In this document: in pieces, positions 31,438 through 37,015 of the stretch
How the letters are laid out: each line of letters begins with the position of its first letter
How positions within the stretch are numbered: position 1 is the stretch's first letter
Origin: Burkholderiales bacterium
Lineage (GTDB): Bacteria; Pseudomonadota; Gammaproteobacteria; Burkholderiales; SG8-41
Length of the DNA stretch: 41,731 nt
Direction: 5' to 3'
Assembly: GCA_037969525.1 (NCBI GenBank)
Contig: JBBKXO010000152.1
Coordinates: forward strand, 1-41,731
Position numbers and translations under genes: made by a program
The notes under the pieces: model-generated
What the model was told of the DNA's origin: nothing
Databases searched by the model: none
The model's input: only the letters and a program-made list of their open reading frames with translations

Positions 31438-32685
31438 ATGGGCGTGTCGCAGCGCAATTACGATACTTCGGCCCGCGGCCCCCTTGACGGCGTACGCATA
31501 GTCGATCTGTCGCGCCTAGTTGCCGGCAACATGCTGACGCAAGTGCTCGGTGATTTCGGCGCCGAAGTCATCAAGATCGAGCCGCCTGCGGGCGACACAC
31601 TGCGAGCATGGAAAGTCGAACAGGTCGATACCAACTGGAAACTGTACGCGCGCAACAAGAAAAGCCTGGGCCTCGAATTGCGCAAACCTGAAGCGCGCGA
31701 ACTGTTGCTGCAACTGGTGGCCAGGGCGGCGGTATTCGTCGAGAGCTTCCGCCCGGGCACGCTGGAATCCATGGGTCTGGGTCCTGACGCGCTGCTGGCG
31801 CGCAACCCGAAACTGGTCATCGTACGCATCTCGGGCTGGGGCCAGGACGGACCTTACAAGCGGCGCCCCGGCTTCGGCACACTGGTTGAAGGCATGTCCG
31901 GTTTCGCGGCGCTGAACGGATTCGAGGACCGGGAACCCGTATTGCCGCCGATGTATCTTGCCGACACTATCGCCGGATTGTACGGCGCGACCGGTGTCAT
32001 GATCGCGCTGCGTGAAGTCGAACAGAATCAAGGCAAGGGACAGGTCATCGACCTGCCGCTGCTTGATCCGCTGTTCGCCGTACTGGGACCCCAGGCCGCC
32101 AATTACCGGCTGACCGGCAGGATCAAGCCGCGCACCGGCAGCCGCTCGACCAACGCCGCGCCGCGCAATGCCTATAAATGCAAGGACGGCAAGTATGTCG
32201 GTCTATCGGCTTCGATCCAGAAAATGGCCGAGCGCGTATTTGAATCCATCGGCCGCCCCGATCTGATCAACAACCCGCGCTATAAAACCAATGCCGACCG
32301 GGTGAGGCATGCTGCCGAACTCGATGCCATCATCGGCGAATTCATCGCGCAGCGCACCCAGGCTGAGAATGTCGCATTCTTCGAAAAAGCCGACGTCACC
32401 ATCGGTCCAATCTACGACATTTCACAGATTGTCGAAGATCCGCATGTACTCGCACGCGAATTGATTGCTGATTACCCCGATCCGGACATGGACGCTTACC
32501 CGATGCACCATGTCGTGCCACGGCTGTCGGGCACGCCGGCGTCGATCCGCACGCCGGCACCGAAAATCGGCGAACACAACGCGGCACTGCTCTCCGAACT
32601 TGGCATTGATGCCGCGGCCTATCAAAAACTGCTGGCGGCGGGCATCGTCTGCGCCGGCGGCACGGCACCCGCCGCCGAAGAATGA
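31438..32685 (+). CDS. Family III (CaiB/BaiF) acyl-CoA transferase
   Basis: 415 aa with GPLDGVRIVDLSRLVAGN and a conserved Asp region (...LADTIAGL...) typical of family III CoA-transferases. Confidence 0.85.
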   Translation: MGVSQRNYDTSARGPLDGVRIVDLSRLVAGNMLTQVLGDFGAEVIKIEPPAGDTLRAWKVEQVDTNWKLYARNKKSLGLELRKPEARELLLQLVARAAVFVESFRPGTLESMGLGPDALLARNPKLVIVRISGWGQDGPYKRRPGFGTLVEGMSGFAALNGFEDREPVLPPMYLADTIAGLYGATGVMIALREVEQNQGKGQVIDLPLLDPLFAVLGPQAANYRLTGRIKPRTGSRSTNAAPRNAYKCKDGKYVGLSASIQKMAERVFESIGRPDLINNPRYKTNADRVRHAAELDAIIGEFIAQRTQAENVAFFEKADVTIGPIYDISQIVEDPHVLARELIADYPDPDMDAYPMHHVVPRLSGTPASIRTPAPKIGEHNAALLSELGIDAAAYQKLLAAGIVCAGGTAPAAEE

Positions 32686-32728
32686 CCGGCGGCCTGCGTT
32701 TTAACCAATCAAACTGAAGGATTACGAC

Positions 32729-33640
32729 ATGTATCGTGAATATCCGGTGTGGCGCTCATTGATGTATGTGCCGGTCAATGTTGAAAAATACGTGGACAAG
32801 GCACACACGCGCGGCGCCGACGTCATCCAGCTGGATATAGAAGACAGCGTGCCGCCGGCCCAGAAAGCCAATGCCCGCAAACTGGTCGAGAAAAATGCGG
32901 CACGCGTGCGCCGCGGCGGCGCCGACGTGGTGGTACGCATCAACCAGCCGCTGTCGATGGCGGTGCGCGATATCGAGCATTCGGTGTGCCCCGACGTCAA
33001 TGGCATCGCCGTCACCAAAGCCTCAGGCGCGGCGCACCTGCAGTTGCTTGACGAACTGGTCAGCGAGCTTGAGCAAAAGCGCGGCATGACGATCGGCCAC
33101 ACCAAATTCATAGTAATGATCGAAACGCCCGAGGCTTTTTTCCAGATTCGTGAAATTACCCAGGCCAGCAGCCGCACCATCGCCTGCAACATTGGCGGCG
33201 AGGACTTCGCGCTCAACAACAACATGCAACCAACCGGTGACGCGCTGTTTTATCCGAAGCAGCACATGGTTTTCGCGGCCAACGCCGCCGGCATCATGCC
33301 TCTGGGTTTTGTTGACAGCGTTGCCACCTTCGGCGACTGGGACAATTTCCGCAAAATGGTGCGCCGTTCCCGCGATTTCGGTTTCATGGGTGCCGGCTGC
33401 ATACACCCCGGGCAGGTCACCATTGTCAACGAGGAATACAAACCCAGTGCTGCCGAAGTCGAGTACGCGCGCAAGGTCATCGCGCTCGACAAGGAGGCTG
33501 CAGCGGCAGGTCGCGCATCCTTCGCGCTCGACGGCAAGATGGTCGATATTCCCATCATCGTGCGCGCCGAGCGCCTGCTCAAACGCTACGCAGCCATCAC
33601 AGCGCGCGAAGCAAAAACCCTGGCAGCAATGCAGGGCTGA
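32729..33640 (+). CDS. HpcH/HpaI-CitE-like acyl-CoA lyase (citramalyl-/malyl-CoA lyase-like)
   Basis: 303 aa with RSLMYVPVN..., DLEDS-like IQLDIEDSV and a CitE-like C-terminal half. The start could be the internal Met at 32762. Confidence 0.8.
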   Translation: MYREYPVWRSLMYVPVNVEKYVDKAHTRGADVIQLDIEDSVPPAQKANARKLVEKNAARVRRGGADVVVRINQPLSMAVRDIEHSVCPDVNGIAVTKASGAAHLQLLDELVSELEQKRGMTIGHTKFIVMIETPEAFFQIREITQASSRTIACNIGGEDFALNNNMQPTGDALFYPKQHMVFAANAAGIMPLGFVDSVATFGDWDNFRKMVRRSRDFGFMGAGCIHPGQVTIVNEEYKPSAAEVEYARKVIALDKEAAAAGRASFALDGKMVDIPIIVRAERLLKRYAAITAREAKTLAAMQG

Positions 33641-33746
33641 TAATTAAATCCTATAAATCAACGTGTTACGATTATCATCCGTCATCGCTTCAGCGTCCCC
33701 GCCAACATTGATTTGTTGATCGCTTTGCAATTTAATCAAACCTTCC

Positions 33747-34598
33747 ATGCGTAACGTCTCCACCACCAGCATCACCCAGGCCGTCGTGCATTCGTTCAAC
33801 GGCGCTACCGATCCGCGTTTCAAGCACTTGATCGAGCGGCTGACACATCACCTGCATGCCTTCGCCCGCGAGGTGAAGCTGACACCTGAAGAATGGAAGG
33901 CCGGCATCGATTTTCTCTACCATGCCGGCAAGATTTCGGATGAAGCGCGCAACGAATTCATTTTGACCTCCGACGTGCTTGGCCTGTCATCACTGGTCGA
34001 TCTGCTGCAAAGTGGCGCCGGCGGCACAGAGCGTAGTGCGCTGGGGCCATTTCACGCCGACGGATCACCTACCCTCGCAGTTGGCACCGACATCAAGCGT
34101 GACAATGATGGTGAACCCATGCTTGTCAGCGGTTGCGTGCTCGACGCTGATGGCCATGCAGTCGCCGGAGCGCAACTCGATTTCTGGCAGGCCGCGGTCA
34201 ATGGCCTGTACTGGCAGCAGGATCCGCAGCAGGACAAAAACAACCTGCGTTTCCGCATGATCACGGGGGCAGACGGTTACTACGCCTTTACCACGATCCG
34301 GCCCGCTTCTTATACCGTGCCTTATGACGGCCCGGTCGGAGACCTTCTCCGCGCCGGCGGCCGCCATGCATGGCGCCCCGCGCATTTCCATTTCATCGTC
34401 AGCGCCACCAACCATCAACCGCTGACTACTGAAGTATTTTTTGCCGATGATCCTTATATCGACGCCGATGCCGTATTCGGAGTACGCGAGTCACTGCTGG
34501 TCAATACACGCAGCAATACGGACAGTGCGCTGGCGCAACGCCATCGGCTGACCGTGCCCTTTCATAGCGTGGAGTTCGACTTCCGCTTGAGCCGCTAG
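33747..34598 (+). CDS. Intradiol ring-cleavage dioxygenase (hydroxyquinol/catechol 1,2-dioxygenase family)
   Basis: 283 aa with an N-terminal helical dimerisation region, candidate Tyr ligands in GLYWQQ and ASYTVPY, and a His pair in RPAHFHF. Confidence 0.85.
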   Translation: MRNVSTTSITQAVVHSFNGATDPRFKHLIERLTHHLHAFAREVKLTPEEWKAGIDFLYHAGKISDEARNEFILTSDVLGLSSLVDLLQSGAGGTERSALGPFHADGSPTLAVGTDIKRDNDGEPMLVSGCVLDADGHAVAGAQLDFWQAAVNGLYWQQDPQQDKNNLRFRMITGADGYYAFTTIRPASYTVPYDGPVGDLLRAGGRHAWRPAHFHFIVSATNHQPLTTEVFFADDPYIDADAVFGVRESLLVNTRSNTDSALAQRHRLTVPFHSVEFDFRLSR

Positions 34599-34651
34599 GG
34601 CCCGCCTTAGAATCGAGCAGATCCCACAGCAACAACCGAGGTAATTCACGC

Positions 34652-35503
34652 ATGCCTGCAGATCTTGAATCCCTGAAGCAATGGATTGGACGCACTGAAT
34701 CGGCGATCGACTATGTCACTGTACCCGCCGTAGACCGGTTGTCGGCGACGCTTGATCGTGATGACGCTTTCCCCAAAATGGGCGATCGGTTGCCCGTTGG
34801 CTGGCACGCCATACTGTTCCCGCGTATCGTGCGTCACTCGCAGATCGGTCCCGACGGCCATCCGCTGCGCGGGGATTTCCTGCCGCCGGTGCCACTGCCC
34901 CGCCGCATGTTCGCCGGCAAACGCACGACATTCATTTCTGACTTGCTCGTCGGCGATGAAGTACATCGCGAATCGGTAATCCAGAATGTCACCATCAAGG
35001 ACGGACGCAGTGGACGCATGGTCTTCGTCACCGTCAAAACCGACATCAAAAGCCCGCGCGGCATTGCAATCACCGAAGAGCAGGACATCGTCTACCGCGG
35101 CGAACCTGATAAAAACGCGCCGCCTCCTGCACCGCAACCGGCGCCGGGCAAGGCGGTGTGGTCACACCAGGTCACACCCGATCCGGTGCTGCTGTTCCGC
35201 TATTCGGCACTGACTTTCAACGGCCACCGCATTCATTACGACAAGCCCTATGTCACCGGCACCGAAGGCTATCCGGATCTGATCATGAACGGCGGGCTGA
35301 CGACGCTGCTGACTTACGAACTCGCTCGCAGCCACGGCTCCACGCCGATCAAGTACATGTCTTCGCGCAACGTGCGCGCGCTGTTCGTCAACCGCACCAT
35401 CACTTTCTGCGGCGAACCCAGCGCCGACAACAAGACGGCGAAACTGTGGGCGCAGGATGACACCGGCGCCGTGGCGCTATCTGCAGAAGCGGAGTTTGCC
35501 TAG
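34652..35503 (+). CDS. HTD2/MaoC-N-type hotdog-fold enoyl-CoA hydratase (mesaconyl-C4-CoA / itaconyl-CoA hydratase-like)
   Basis: 283 aa with a C-terminal motif FNGHRIHYDKPYVTGTEGYPDLIMNGGL that I associate with the Meh/HTD2 group. GAGG lies upstream of the ATG. Confidence 0.6.
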   Translation: MPADLESLKQWIGRTESAIDYVTVPAVDRLSATLDRDDAFPKMGDRLPVGWHAILFPRIVRHSQIGPDGHPLRGDFLPPVPLPRRMFAGKRTTFISDLLVGDEVHRESVIQNVTIKDGRSGRMVFVTVKTDIKSPRGIAITEEQDIVYRGEPDKNAPPPAPQPAPGKAVWSHQVTPDPVLLFRYSALTFNGHRIHYDKPYVTGTEGYPDLIMNGGLTTLLTYELARSHGSTPIKYMSSRNVRALFVNRTITFCGEPSADNKTAKLWAQDDTGAVALSAEAEFA

Positions 35504-35799
35504 AGCACCCGACAGGTTAAAACACGCGTGCGCTATCACGATTTTGGTTCAGGGCAAGGCGCGGCCCGCAGCAAATATCGAGAATATTCGCAAGGGGCGC
35601 AACGCGGCCTTGGACCAAAATCGTGATCGCCCTTTTTAAAGGATATGAGAAATGAATGATGCTTTTGGGGTTGCGGCCAGAACCGGCGCTGACTTTGTCG
35701 GCCGGCTTGCCCATATTCGCGATATGACCCGCGCCATCCTTCGCGTCAGCGCCGATTCTGACTCGCAACGCACACGCGTTTTATCCTGTCGGGTGCTCT
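35502..35799. repeat. 298-bp nested inverted-repeat element (outer 31-bp arms plus two internal long hairpin modules); MITE-like repeat or structured intercistronic RNA
   Basis: Outer arms 35502-35532 / 35769-35799 are complementary at 28/31 positions, with the first 15 perfect. Module A (35532-35630) has perfect 14-bp arms at 35535-35548 / 35614-35627. Module B arms 35678-35693 / 35745-35760 match at 15/16. Coordinates cross-checked against flanking ORF frames. Function unknown. Confidence 0.8.
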
Positions 35800-35800
35800 G

Positions 35801-37015
35801 ATGGCCGGCGGACCCCTGGAAGGCATCAAGATCATCGACATGACCTCGGTGGTCGTCGGCCCGCTGGCAACCCAGACTTTTGCCGACCATGGCGCAGACG
35901 TCATCAAGGTCGAAGCGCCGGGCGGCGACATCGTGCGATTTCTCGCCGGCCGTGGCCGCACTGCCGGCATGTCCGGTAAATACCTGCACCTCAACCGCAA
36001 CAAGCGCTCGCTGGTGCTGGACATGAAAAAACCCGGCGCCTACGCCGCGCTGATGAAATTGCTGGAAACTGCCGATGTGCTGATCTGGAACATGCGGCCG
36101 CCGGCAATGAAGCGGCTGAAGCTGTCCTACGAAGACGTGTGCAAGGTCAATCCCAAGATCATTTACTGCGGCATGTTCGGTTTCGGTCAGGAAGGACGTT
36201 ACCGGGATAAACCGGCCTACGATTCGATCATTCAGGGCTCCGCCGGCATTGCCGCGCTGTACCACATGGCCACCGGCGAACCGCGCTACCTGCCGATGGT
36301 GGTGGCTGACCGCACCGTGGGGCTGATCGCCGTACAGATGATCCTGATGGCGCTGCTGCACCGCGAACGCACCGGCGAAGGCCAATCGATAGAACTGCCG
36401 ATGTTCGAAAACATGGTCAAGTCGGTGCTCGAAGAGCACATGTACCTGAAAACCTTTGATCCGCCGCTGGGCCCGGTCGGTGATCCGCGACTGACCGACC
36501 CGCAGGCACGGCCGCTGCCGACCAAGGACGGCTGGGTCTGCGTCTCGGCTAACACTGACGGTCAGGCCTTCGCGGTATTCGATGCCATCGGCAAACCGGA
36601 ATTGAAAACCGATCCGCGCTTCAACACCGTCGCTGCGCGATTCAAGAACACCCCGGAATATTTCAGCATCCGTGCCGAAGGTCTGAAGAAGAAAACCACG
36701 GCAGAATGGATAGAAATCTTCGATCGCACCGATGTGCCGGCGATGCCATTCCAGACACTCGATCAGATCATGGAAGATCCGCATCTCAAGGACATCGGCT
36801 TTTTCGAGAAAATCGAGCACCCGACCGAAGGCAAAATCTGGAACATGAAACTGCCGAACAAGCTGTCGCGTGGCGCACGCAGAGATTTTCGCCATGCCCC
36901 GAAGATTGGCGAACAAAGCCTTGAGGTTTTGCGGGAGGCTGGTCTGTCGGAGGCGGATATCGCCGCGCTGCTGGCCAATGGCGCAACGCTGGATGGACGC
37001 CCGGAAAAAAAATGA
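35801..37015 (+). CDS. Family III (CaiB/BaiF) acyl-CoA transferase, second copy
   Basis: 404 aa with MAGGPLEGIKIIDMTSVVVGP and family III core motifs. Paralogous to 31438..32685. Confidence 0.85.
   Translation: MAGGPLEGIKIIDMTSVVVGPLATQTFADHGADVIKVEAPGGDIVRFLAGRGRTAGMSGKYLHLNRNKRSLVLDMKKPGAYAALMKLLETADVLIWNMRPPAMKRLKLSYEDVCKVNPKIIYCGMFGFGQEGRYRDKPAYDSIIQGSAGIAALYHMATGEPRYLPMVVADRTVGLIAVQMILMALLHRERTGEGQSIELPMFENMVKSVLEEHMYLKTFDPPLGPVGDPRLTDPQARPLPTKDGWVCVSANTDGQAFAVFDAIGKPELKTDPRFNTVAARFKNTPEYFSIRAEGLKKKTTAEWIEIFDRTDVPAMPFQTLDQIMEDPHLKDIGFFEKIEHPTEGKIWNMKLPNKLSRGARRDFRHAPKIGEQSLEVLREAGLSEADIAALLANGATLDGRPEKK

Follow-up and report, generated by a model that had tools for sequence, protein, structure and literature searches.

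The locus and its palindromic spacer

We analysed a 41,731-nucleotide stretch of DNA from a Burkholderiales bacterium (assembly GCA_037969525.1, contig JBBKXO010000152.1, positions 1 to 41,731 of the forward strand), referred to here as the window, and in particular a 298-bp nested palindrome at positions 35502-35799 that separates two genes of the plus strand. The upstream gene (34652-35503) encodes a MaoC/hot-dog-type (de)hydratase (Pfam FAS1_DH_region, E = 7e-9) and ends with a TAG stop codon at 35501-35503. The downstream gene (35801-37015) encodes a family III CoA-transferase (Pfam CoA_transf_3, E = 8e-99); its ATG at 35801 is unchanged as a start compared with related loci. The palindrome fills the space from stop to start, as an earlier note on this DNA had pointed out. 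Comparison with the related copies described below refines this fit and places the element proper at 35503-35798 (296 bp), with GAG at 35503 as its beginning, CTC at 35798 as its end, and A35502 and T35799 as part of a target-site duplication. Elsewhere in the gene row, the junctions measure 41-106 nt.

The outer arms of the palindrome (35502-35532 and 35769-35799) are complementary at 28 of 31 positions (90%) according to the repeat finder, with a perfect match over the first 15 nt. The 22 nt that open both arms match AGAGCACCCGACAGGWTAAAAC, a pattern that has no other match in the window and for which none is expected by chance. Two hairpin modules are enclosed by these arms. Module A (35532-35630) has 47-nt arms (35532-35578 and 35584-35630) that are 70% complementary and that contain perfect 14-nt arms at 35535-35548 and 35614-35627. 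Module B (35670-35768) includes 16-nt arms at 35678-35693 and 35745-35760, complementary at 15 of 16 positions, as well as a small palindrome (35712-35726). The modules are separated by an AT-richer centre (35631-35669) that holds several ATGs and, as read from the sequence, a run of five T residues (35633-35637). The outer arms, both modules, the small palindrome, the T run and the flanking stop and start codons had all been described in the earlier note and are confirmed at these positions.

The element as a whole is mirror-symmetric, with position 35650 as its midpoint, and the apices of modules A and B (35575-35594 and 35706-35725) can therefore pair with one another (20 nt, 85% complementary). 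In RNA, this complementarity would also permit a loop-loop interaction. We considered that the two halves of the element might be diverged mirror copies of one another and rejected the idea, as only the terminal inverted repeats (TIRs) and an ATATCG(A/C)GAATAT apex motif align.

A scan of the whole window ranks the inverted repeats of the element as the two strongest in its 41.7 kb, and no second copy of the element is found there. The 298-nt RNA of the plus strand has a minimum free energy (MFE) of -152.9 kcal/mol, compared with -102.7 +/- 5.2 for dinucleotide shuffles (z = -9.6), and that of the minus strand has an MFE of -168.2 kcal/mol, compared with about -103 +/- 5 (z = -12.1). None of the 200 shuffles reaches the folding energy of the real element. 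The nested palindrome structure is well beyond chance, and the comparison with shuffled controls that the earlier note had proposed comes out far in favour of the real fold. That note had offered two explanations for so much order in a spacer: an insertion resembling a MITE (miniature inverted-repeat transposable element) or a REP, or a structured intercistronic RNA specific to this locus.

Related loci lack the element

Related loci were collected by a protein-guided scan for the CoA-transferase, which identified 80 loci (66-96% amino acid identity), all of them in metagenome-assembled genomes (MAGs) of uncultured Burkholderiales/Betaproteobacteria. No similarity to the element is detected by blastn at any of the 80. 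The hydratase gene lies directly upstream of the CoA-transferase gene in 71 of them, and in 22 of these 71 the spacer is -1 nt, that is, the stop and start codons overlap by one base (TAATG or TGATG). The same overlap is present in five of the nine closest relatives that have the hydratase next door. Twelve overlap junctions were read, ten of which are TAATG and two TGATG. When positions 35502-35799 are removed from the window, the remaining sequence is GAGTTTGCCTGATGGCCGGCGGACC, identical to that of one of the related loci (L002) across the junction. The comparison thus indicates that the element was inserted at this junction.

Other palindromic or hairpin-rich spacers occur at the hydratase/CoA-transferase junction in several of the related loci (91 nt in L005 and L009, 202 nt in L006, 206 nt in L017 and L021, 218 nt in L032 and 333 nt in L063). 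None of these 91-333-nt spacers has similarity to the window element that is detectable by blastn, which marks them as separate insertions that derive from other families of repeats. As the spacers of these other lineages are highly structured yet dissimilar to the window element, the junction has evidently been hit repeatedly, and insertions seem to land at the stop/start overlap time and again. The spacers of L032 and L063 look like another MITE family, with repeated CAGATAAAC/GCGGATGAA motifs, and hairpins of the CCCTCACCCCCG...GGGGAGAGGGG type are common to L005, L006, L009 and L062.

A family of dispersed copies

The family to which the element belongs was found by translating an 83-aa open frame on its minus strand (35517-35768) and searching a protein database with the translation. 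Six 'hypothetical proteins' of 82-86 aa were retrieved (P0001-P0006, 92-96% query coverage, 41-59% identity). On each of their six contigs lies a full-length copy with 74-77% identity to the element along its entire 298 bp, and the neighbours of these copies are unrelated (formamidase/ZnuA, the convergent genes PNPOx/ferredoxin, Gp49 and TctC). One 23-mer, TTTGTCGGCCGGCTTGSCCATAT, which lies in module B and is the most conserved core of the family, is invariant in all seven copies, including that of the window. With this 23-mer, 13 loci were identified in MAGs of Burkholderiales/Betaproteobacteria, along with 117 contigs from metagenomes, all in unrelated contexts. Three copies were detected in one MAG and two in another. 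Local BLAST detected 72 full-length copies and 89 partial matches, many of which are cut off at contig ends, as would be expected of a repeat on which assemblies break. Since the 23-mer had to match exactly, all of these counts are lower bounds. Of the full-length copies, 67 were extractable together with 30 nt of flank on either side; they occupy 61 distinct insertion sites. Judging from these sequences, members of the family occur at well over 100 locations in uncultured Burkholderiales/Betaproteobacteria of soil, sediment and groundwater metagenomes. BLAST of the plasmid collection with the element, the family consensus or the TIR gave no match, and neither did the viral contigs.

These dispersed copies decide between the two explanations of the earlier note. 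A structured RNA specific to this locus does not survive them, as they lie in unrelated contexts, even though they are 67-79% identical to the window copy and not near-identical to it. The insertion is borne out, and in the form of a MITE: the element is absent at the 80 related loci, full-length copies are dispersed, and the family makes a 3-bp target-site duplication (described below). The copies, duplications and empty sites that the note had suggested looking for are all found, the duplication at the level of the family.

At one locus (L207, 691-989 and 1824-2121), two copies in opposite orientation flank a single gene for a DsbC-like thiol:disulfide interchange protein with a CxxC motif. 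The pair could be a MITE-bounded composite or two independent insertions.

The family was recovered through an open frame, and the six database proteins, aligned over almost the whole query, are what one would expect if the element were a small protein-coding gene for an 83-86-aa minus-strand protein shared by several metagenomes. Other observations speak against a gene. Variation is flat over the three codon positions (entropy of 0.284, 0.265 and 0.318, with 26, 27 and 27 variable columns, respectively), and there is thus no codon periodicity. Open frames of 90-100 codons exist on both strands in most copies. P0006 follows another reading frame through its middle, and the frame stays open across this frameshift. 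No Pfam domain is detected, and the supposed gene would be an almost perfect palindrome. We therefore reject the frame as a gene, an explanation that we regard as exceedingly improbable, and keep it as a search probe; P0001-P0006 are spurious annotations of a non-coding repeat.

Termini and target-site duplication

The element starts with GAG and ends with CTC in the window and in 58 of the 61 family sequences. In the window, the left TIR (35503-35532) aligns with the family TIR GAGYCCCTAACAYRATGAAACGCG, and the right TIR (35769-35798) contributes to an outer helix in which seven compensated double changes separate the window copy from the family consensus.

Left of GAG, the flanking trinucleotide is TAA or TTA in 48 cases, and right of CTC in 45, within DNA of 61% G+C (TAA 25, TTA 23 and TGA 2 on the left; TTA 29, TAA 16 and TCA 3 on the right). 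A perfect 3-bp direct repeat is present at 35 of the 61 sites (TTA/TTA at 20 and TAA/TAA at 15), and mixed TAA/TTA flanks are seen at only one. Given that the two trinucleotides match each other and are mixed just once, they represent a true target-site duplication rather than an extension of the inverted repeat, and the family follows the rule TWA-GAG...CTC-TWA. No other repeat length, and no 3-bp repeat in another register, is nearly as frequent at the 61 sites. Repeats of 2 bp are found at no more than four sites in any register and repeats of 4 bp are essentially absent in the registers tested, while the 18 repeats of 5 bp counted at the adjacent register are the same 3-bp repeat extended by one base on each side.

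Elements of the IS1031 group (IS5 family) prefer the target 5'-TNA-3' and make a 3-bp repeat (PMC12016507; PMC2516522). Judged by the target signature alone, the most likely mobilising enzyme is a transposase of IS1031 type that would be supplied in trans and would move the members of the family. Termini that begin with GAG are likewise typical of the IS1031 group. MITEs derived from this group share with the present family the 3-bp TTA/TAA duplication, the GAG termini, and the short, non-coding and multi-copy nature with TIRs of about 30 bp. The present family differs in that no IS1031-type element whose ends match its own came to light in the 1.3 Mb of fetched loci. To our knowledge, IS1031-derived MITEs have not been described as having a pair of long internal hairpin modules or arms that evolve in concert. 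The Tourist-type MITEs of PIF/Harbinger, which also duplicate TTA/TAA, are the eukaryotic counterpart.

The same counts bear on other classes of palindromic repeats, namely REP/BIME with RAYT, IS200/IS605-derived elements, Tn3-derived TIMEs and TA-duplicating MITEs of the IS630 or Correia type. The subterminal hairpins and strongly palindromic sequence of the element, its intergenic location and the fact that the window copy itself has no clean duplication would all suit such a class. REPs and IS200/IS605 elements make no duplication and are limited to short palindromic units of 20-40 nt or to subterminal hairpins, whereas TIMEs duplicate 5 bp and the Correia/IS630 types duplicate TA. The 3-bp TWA repeat of the family is at odds with each of these, and a size of 296 bp with 30-bp TIRs is not that of a REP. 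The rarity of 2-bp repeats argues against a TA-duplicating MITE. Tn3-derived TIMEs have Tn3-type repeats of about 38 bp; the present TIR does not start with GGGG, and 5-bp repeats are seen only as the extended TWA repeat. A membership in one of these classes is thus very unlikely.

Architecture of the family and covariation of the arms

The alignment of 62 sequences, the window copy and 61 others, has conserved TIRs, two hairpin modules with conserved stems and variable loops, and a hypervariable centre. The nested three-helix fold seen at the locus is thus the family's own architecture, in the order TIR, hairpin module, variable centre, hairpin module and TIR. The apical loops of the modules are of the CCATAT-N5-ATATGG type, and in module A the stems are conserved or covary across the family while the apical loop is variable.

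When the structure with three helix domains is applied to the alignment, 96.9% of the cells are paired, and 98.2% in the outer helix (61 distinct sequences). Both sides have changed at 29 of the 91 pairs, compared with 8.8 +/- 1.6 in column shuffles and 3-9 in controls with slid partners. The TIRs provide a particularly clear case. Position 5 is C or T and positions 13-16 are ACAA, ATGA or ATAA; all six combinations exist, in 5-8 copies each, and in each the right arm is exactly complementary. The copies matched at both sites number 45 of 61, of which 40 belong to the six common combinations. This pattern would be hard to obtain by joint inheritance from a small number of master copies, and it suggests that the complementarity of the arms is kept by selection or by hairpin-templated correction. 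The window copy follows the same trend, with 10 compensated double changes relative to the consensus against seven single changes that break a pair; it differs from the consensus at 17% of the paired and 36% of the unpaired columns.

The earlier note had proposed compensatory changes as a sign of a functional RNA. Such changes exist, but they are family-wide, in unrelated contexts and in both orientations, and the two strands fold equally well, which makes them a property of the mobile element and not of the operon mRNA. Over the family, the mean MFE is -154.1 kcal/mol for one strand and -153.2 kcal/mol for the other, which gives no hint that selection acts on one particular transcript. An excess of A·C on the plus strand (146, compared with 33 G·T) was considered as a strand preference that could reflect selection on RNA and set aside as uninformative, since it comes mostly from two or three columns.

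Several variants depart from the standard length. Four short variants of 266-268 bp (L092, L141, L155 and L184) are without the hypervariable centre of about 36 nt and carry the TIR variant GAGTGCC/GGCACTC; two of them, L155 and L184, are the members nearest to the window copy (78-79% identity) and have the GGCTTGCCCATAT core in common with it. Long variants measure 412-445 bp or, in one case, 580 bp. They hold a second, unrelated repeat (...GGAGCAGGGGCCCCGCTTGCGGGGATGCGACC...), GC-rich, structured and about 150 nt long, in one or two copies, nested each time within module B's left arm at an identical position (L107, 992-1141; L138, 4614-4763; L120, 1245-1529; L089; L212; and about 12 others). 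In L160 and L175, the apex of module A is replaced by a different hairpin, GCAAGGCCCGCCGCTTAGACCGACTAAGCAAGGGACTTGC, which points to modular exchange of hairpin tips.

Insertion into overlapping stop and start codons

The element combines 296 bp free of coding signal, TIRs of 30-31 nt, dispersed copies, a target-site duplication in the family and empty sites at related loci. We are highly confident that the 298-bp palindrome is a MITE, a diverged member of a family of about 300 bp that targets TTA/TAA, and that it was inserted in a stop codon overlapping the next start. In the ancestor, the stop of the hydratase gene would have overlapped the start of the CoA-transferase gene (T[A/G]ATG), and this stop would have been the target. 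Upon its duplication, the left copy would have retained the hydratase stop, and the right copy would have retained TGATG for the CoA-transferase. The left copy would then have lost one base, such that the remaining TA (35501-35502) and the first base of the element, G35503, now read TAG. The right copy is the TGA at 35799-35801; its final base doubles as the first base of the CoA-transferase ATG, in keeping with the TAATG or TGATG of the related junctions. One deletion would be enough if the target was TGA, as in L002, and two changes would be needed if it was TAA. The exact fit between stop and start is explained by this scenario, because the stop codon, a TNA, was targeted and its duplication re-created the two codons.

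Other copies of the family also abut genes. In open reading frames (ORFs) of at least 100 codons, the stop falls together with the duplication or lies within the opening 10-18 nt of the TIR, a part that carries TAA/TGA triplets in the family. About eight long ORFs have their ATG 2-3 nt from the end of the element (for example, CTC-TTATG and CTC-TTAATG). Long ORFs enter the element 22 times from the left and about 23 times from the right, that is, with no preference for an orientation.

Several observations weigh against the interpretation as an inserted MITE. The window copy is the most diverged member of the family, since its identity of 67-79% to the other copies compares with about 90% among those. 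Its flanks are CTA on the left and TGA on the right, so that the duplication is not intact and one single-base deletion has to be assumed. Searches with the window-type TIR (GAGCACCCGACAGG...) gave no second copy in genome contigs with a 31-nt degenerate and a 21-nt pattern, no match in metagenome contigs with a 20-nt pattern, and only a locus of Porphyromonas somerae (L081) in genome contigs with a gapped pattern for both termini. An autonomous element with matching ends was not found in the 1.3 Mb of fetched loci, the plasmids or the viral contigs. Finally, the stems are much better conserved than the loops and the arms covary, which is not what one would predict for a dead transposon in simple neutral decay.

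The Porphyromonas somerae match (DSM 23386, L081, 4820-5109) is a 290-bp inverted-repeat element with the termini GGAGCACCCGACAGGGTGCC, which have 14 nt per end in common with the window TIR; it is flanked by the short tandem repeats GTCGGAC/GTCAGAC. Its interior is unrelated, and we consider the resemblance to be due to chance. Two candidates for an autonomous element were also rejected. A pair of TIRs 3698 nt apart in L089 is a chance match inside a long ORF, and a pair 1429 nt apart in L207 corresponds to the two MITEs that flank the DsbC-like gene. A relaxed TIR search of the fetched loci for pairs at the distance of an insertion sequence found none.

Signals around the junction and possible effects on the operon

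The gene row that contains the element (31438-37015) comprises a family III CoA-transferase, an HpcH/HpaI-type (citrate-lyase-beta-like) lyase, an intradiol dioxygenase, the hot-dog hydratase and the second family III CoA-transferase. A set of CoA-transferase, hydratase and acyl-CoA lyase presumably recalls clusters for the degradation of itaconate or other C5-dicarboxylates.

A GGAG in the 3' end of the hydratase gene (35491-35494, plus strand) is found 8-9 nt before the ATG at related loci, which suggests that it is likely the ancestral Shine-Dalgarno sequence of the CoA-transferase gene. In the window, GGAG now lies 306 nt upstream in linear distance and faces the ATG across the foot of the outer helix. 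The earlier note had seen no Shine-Dalgarno sequence before this ATG, which is not quite right: a similar motif, GGGTG, lies in the right TIR (35791-35795, plus strand), 5 nt before the ATG, where it can pair with the anti-Shine-Dalgarno sequence and may function in initiation. The outer helix hides this motif. Its predicted pairing in the free RNA is complete (probability of being unpaired, 0.00), and the AUG at 35801 is unpaired, at the foot of the helix. When 35486-35516 is constrained to be single-stranded, mimicking a terminating ribosome, the probability that GGGTG is unpaired is only 0.38.

An open frame of 49 codons on the plus strand (35652-35801), with AAAGGA 8 nt upstream, ends in a TGA that overlaps the ATG at 35801. 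This frame is probably fortuitous, because its start lies in the centre, which is not conserved across the family. If it were translated, stop/start coupling to the CoA-transferase would be restored.

No promoter-like site was called in a scan of 34500-36500, and the single terminator-like site called there lies outside the element. Module A with its T run was considered as an intrinsic terminator and rejected, as the scan did not call it and the run starts 3 nt past the stem, within the hypervariable centre; at this position, the consensus of the family shows no run of T. The AT-rich centre was likewise considered as a promoter and rejected, as the scanner made no call. The Rfam search proposed in the earlier note yielded only noise-level matches in the window (best score of 19 bits, compared with a gathering score of 51) and none in two loci of the family.

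The insertion would break the direct stop/start overlap in the operon, and a co-transcribed RNA should form an outer helix of about 30 bp that hides the GGGUG. We infer possible effects on translational coupling or RNA processing from these predicted folds. The element may thus have been exapted as an intercistronic RNA device, in which the outer helix hides GGGUG until a ribosome terminating at the UAG (35501-35503) melts the left arm and couples translation of the two genes, and/or in which the helix serves as an RNase III processing or stability site. Several features would fit such a device. The fold is very stable, the full pairing of GGGUG is relieved in part in the constrained fold, the AUG is unpaired at the helix foot, and the ancestral GGAG and the AUG lie on opposite sides of the helix base. 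In addition, the copies that end 2-3 nt before the ATG of a long ORF leave no room for another Shine-Dalgarno sequence.

The Correia elements of Neisseria (CREE/NEMIS) are also MITEs, often co-transcribed with their neighbours, and their TIRs form a long double-stranded RNA helix. In mRNAs, this helix is cut by RNase III, which alters the expression of flanking genes (PMC10969869). By analogy, the outer helix of about 30 bp is a plausible RNase III substrate. The differences are that Correia elements are about 100-155 bp long, duplicate TA and have no sequence similarity to the present family, for which RNase III cleavage is conjectural. ERIC/IRU and other long, imperfectly palindromic intergenic repeats of proteobacteria likewise are intergenic, are transcribed and have a conserved secondary structure; these repeats can affect the stability of flanking mRNAs (PMC10969869). 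They differ from the present family in sequence, size, host group and duplication, and the present family is not in Rfam.

Against a device of this kind, the predicted unmasking is only partial, copies lie in either orientation beside the flanking frames, and the two strands fold equally well. This architecture also occurs between convergent genes and in further settings that are not operons, and the related loci work with no element at all. All of the features listed could be by-products of a palindromic transposon, and they are known here from sequence and predicted folds. We consider an exapted device at this locus to be quite unlikely. A broader idea, which we also judge unlikely, is that the complementarity is actively maintained, by selection or by hairpin-templated correction of single-stranded DNA, and that the element is built for gene ends, with its TAA/TTA target, the stops in its TIRs and an SD-like (Shine-Dalgarno-like) AGGGR/GGGTG 5 nt from its end. 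It would then act at operon junctions as a mobile intercistronic adaptor, with downstream translation dependent on the opening of the helix by the upstream ribosome or on cleavage by RNase III.

Implications

A candidate for a novel structured RNA is thus replaced by a TWA-targeting MITE that struck a stop codon. The kind of element, a mobile repeat of the MITE type, is well known and ordinary. The family itself is newly documented: it has no entry in Rfam, the plasmid and viral collections that were searched do not contain it, and literature searches brought up no description of it. It breaks metagenome assemblies, and gene callers have annotated its copies as hypothetical proteins of 82-86 aa. 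The concerted evolution of its arms offers a clean data set on how palindromic repeats keep their complementarity. For such elements, TAATG overlaps are natural, non-destructive targets, since the duplication restores both codons, and the targeting of overlapping stops and starts offers operons a simple route to long structured spacers without damage to their ORFs.

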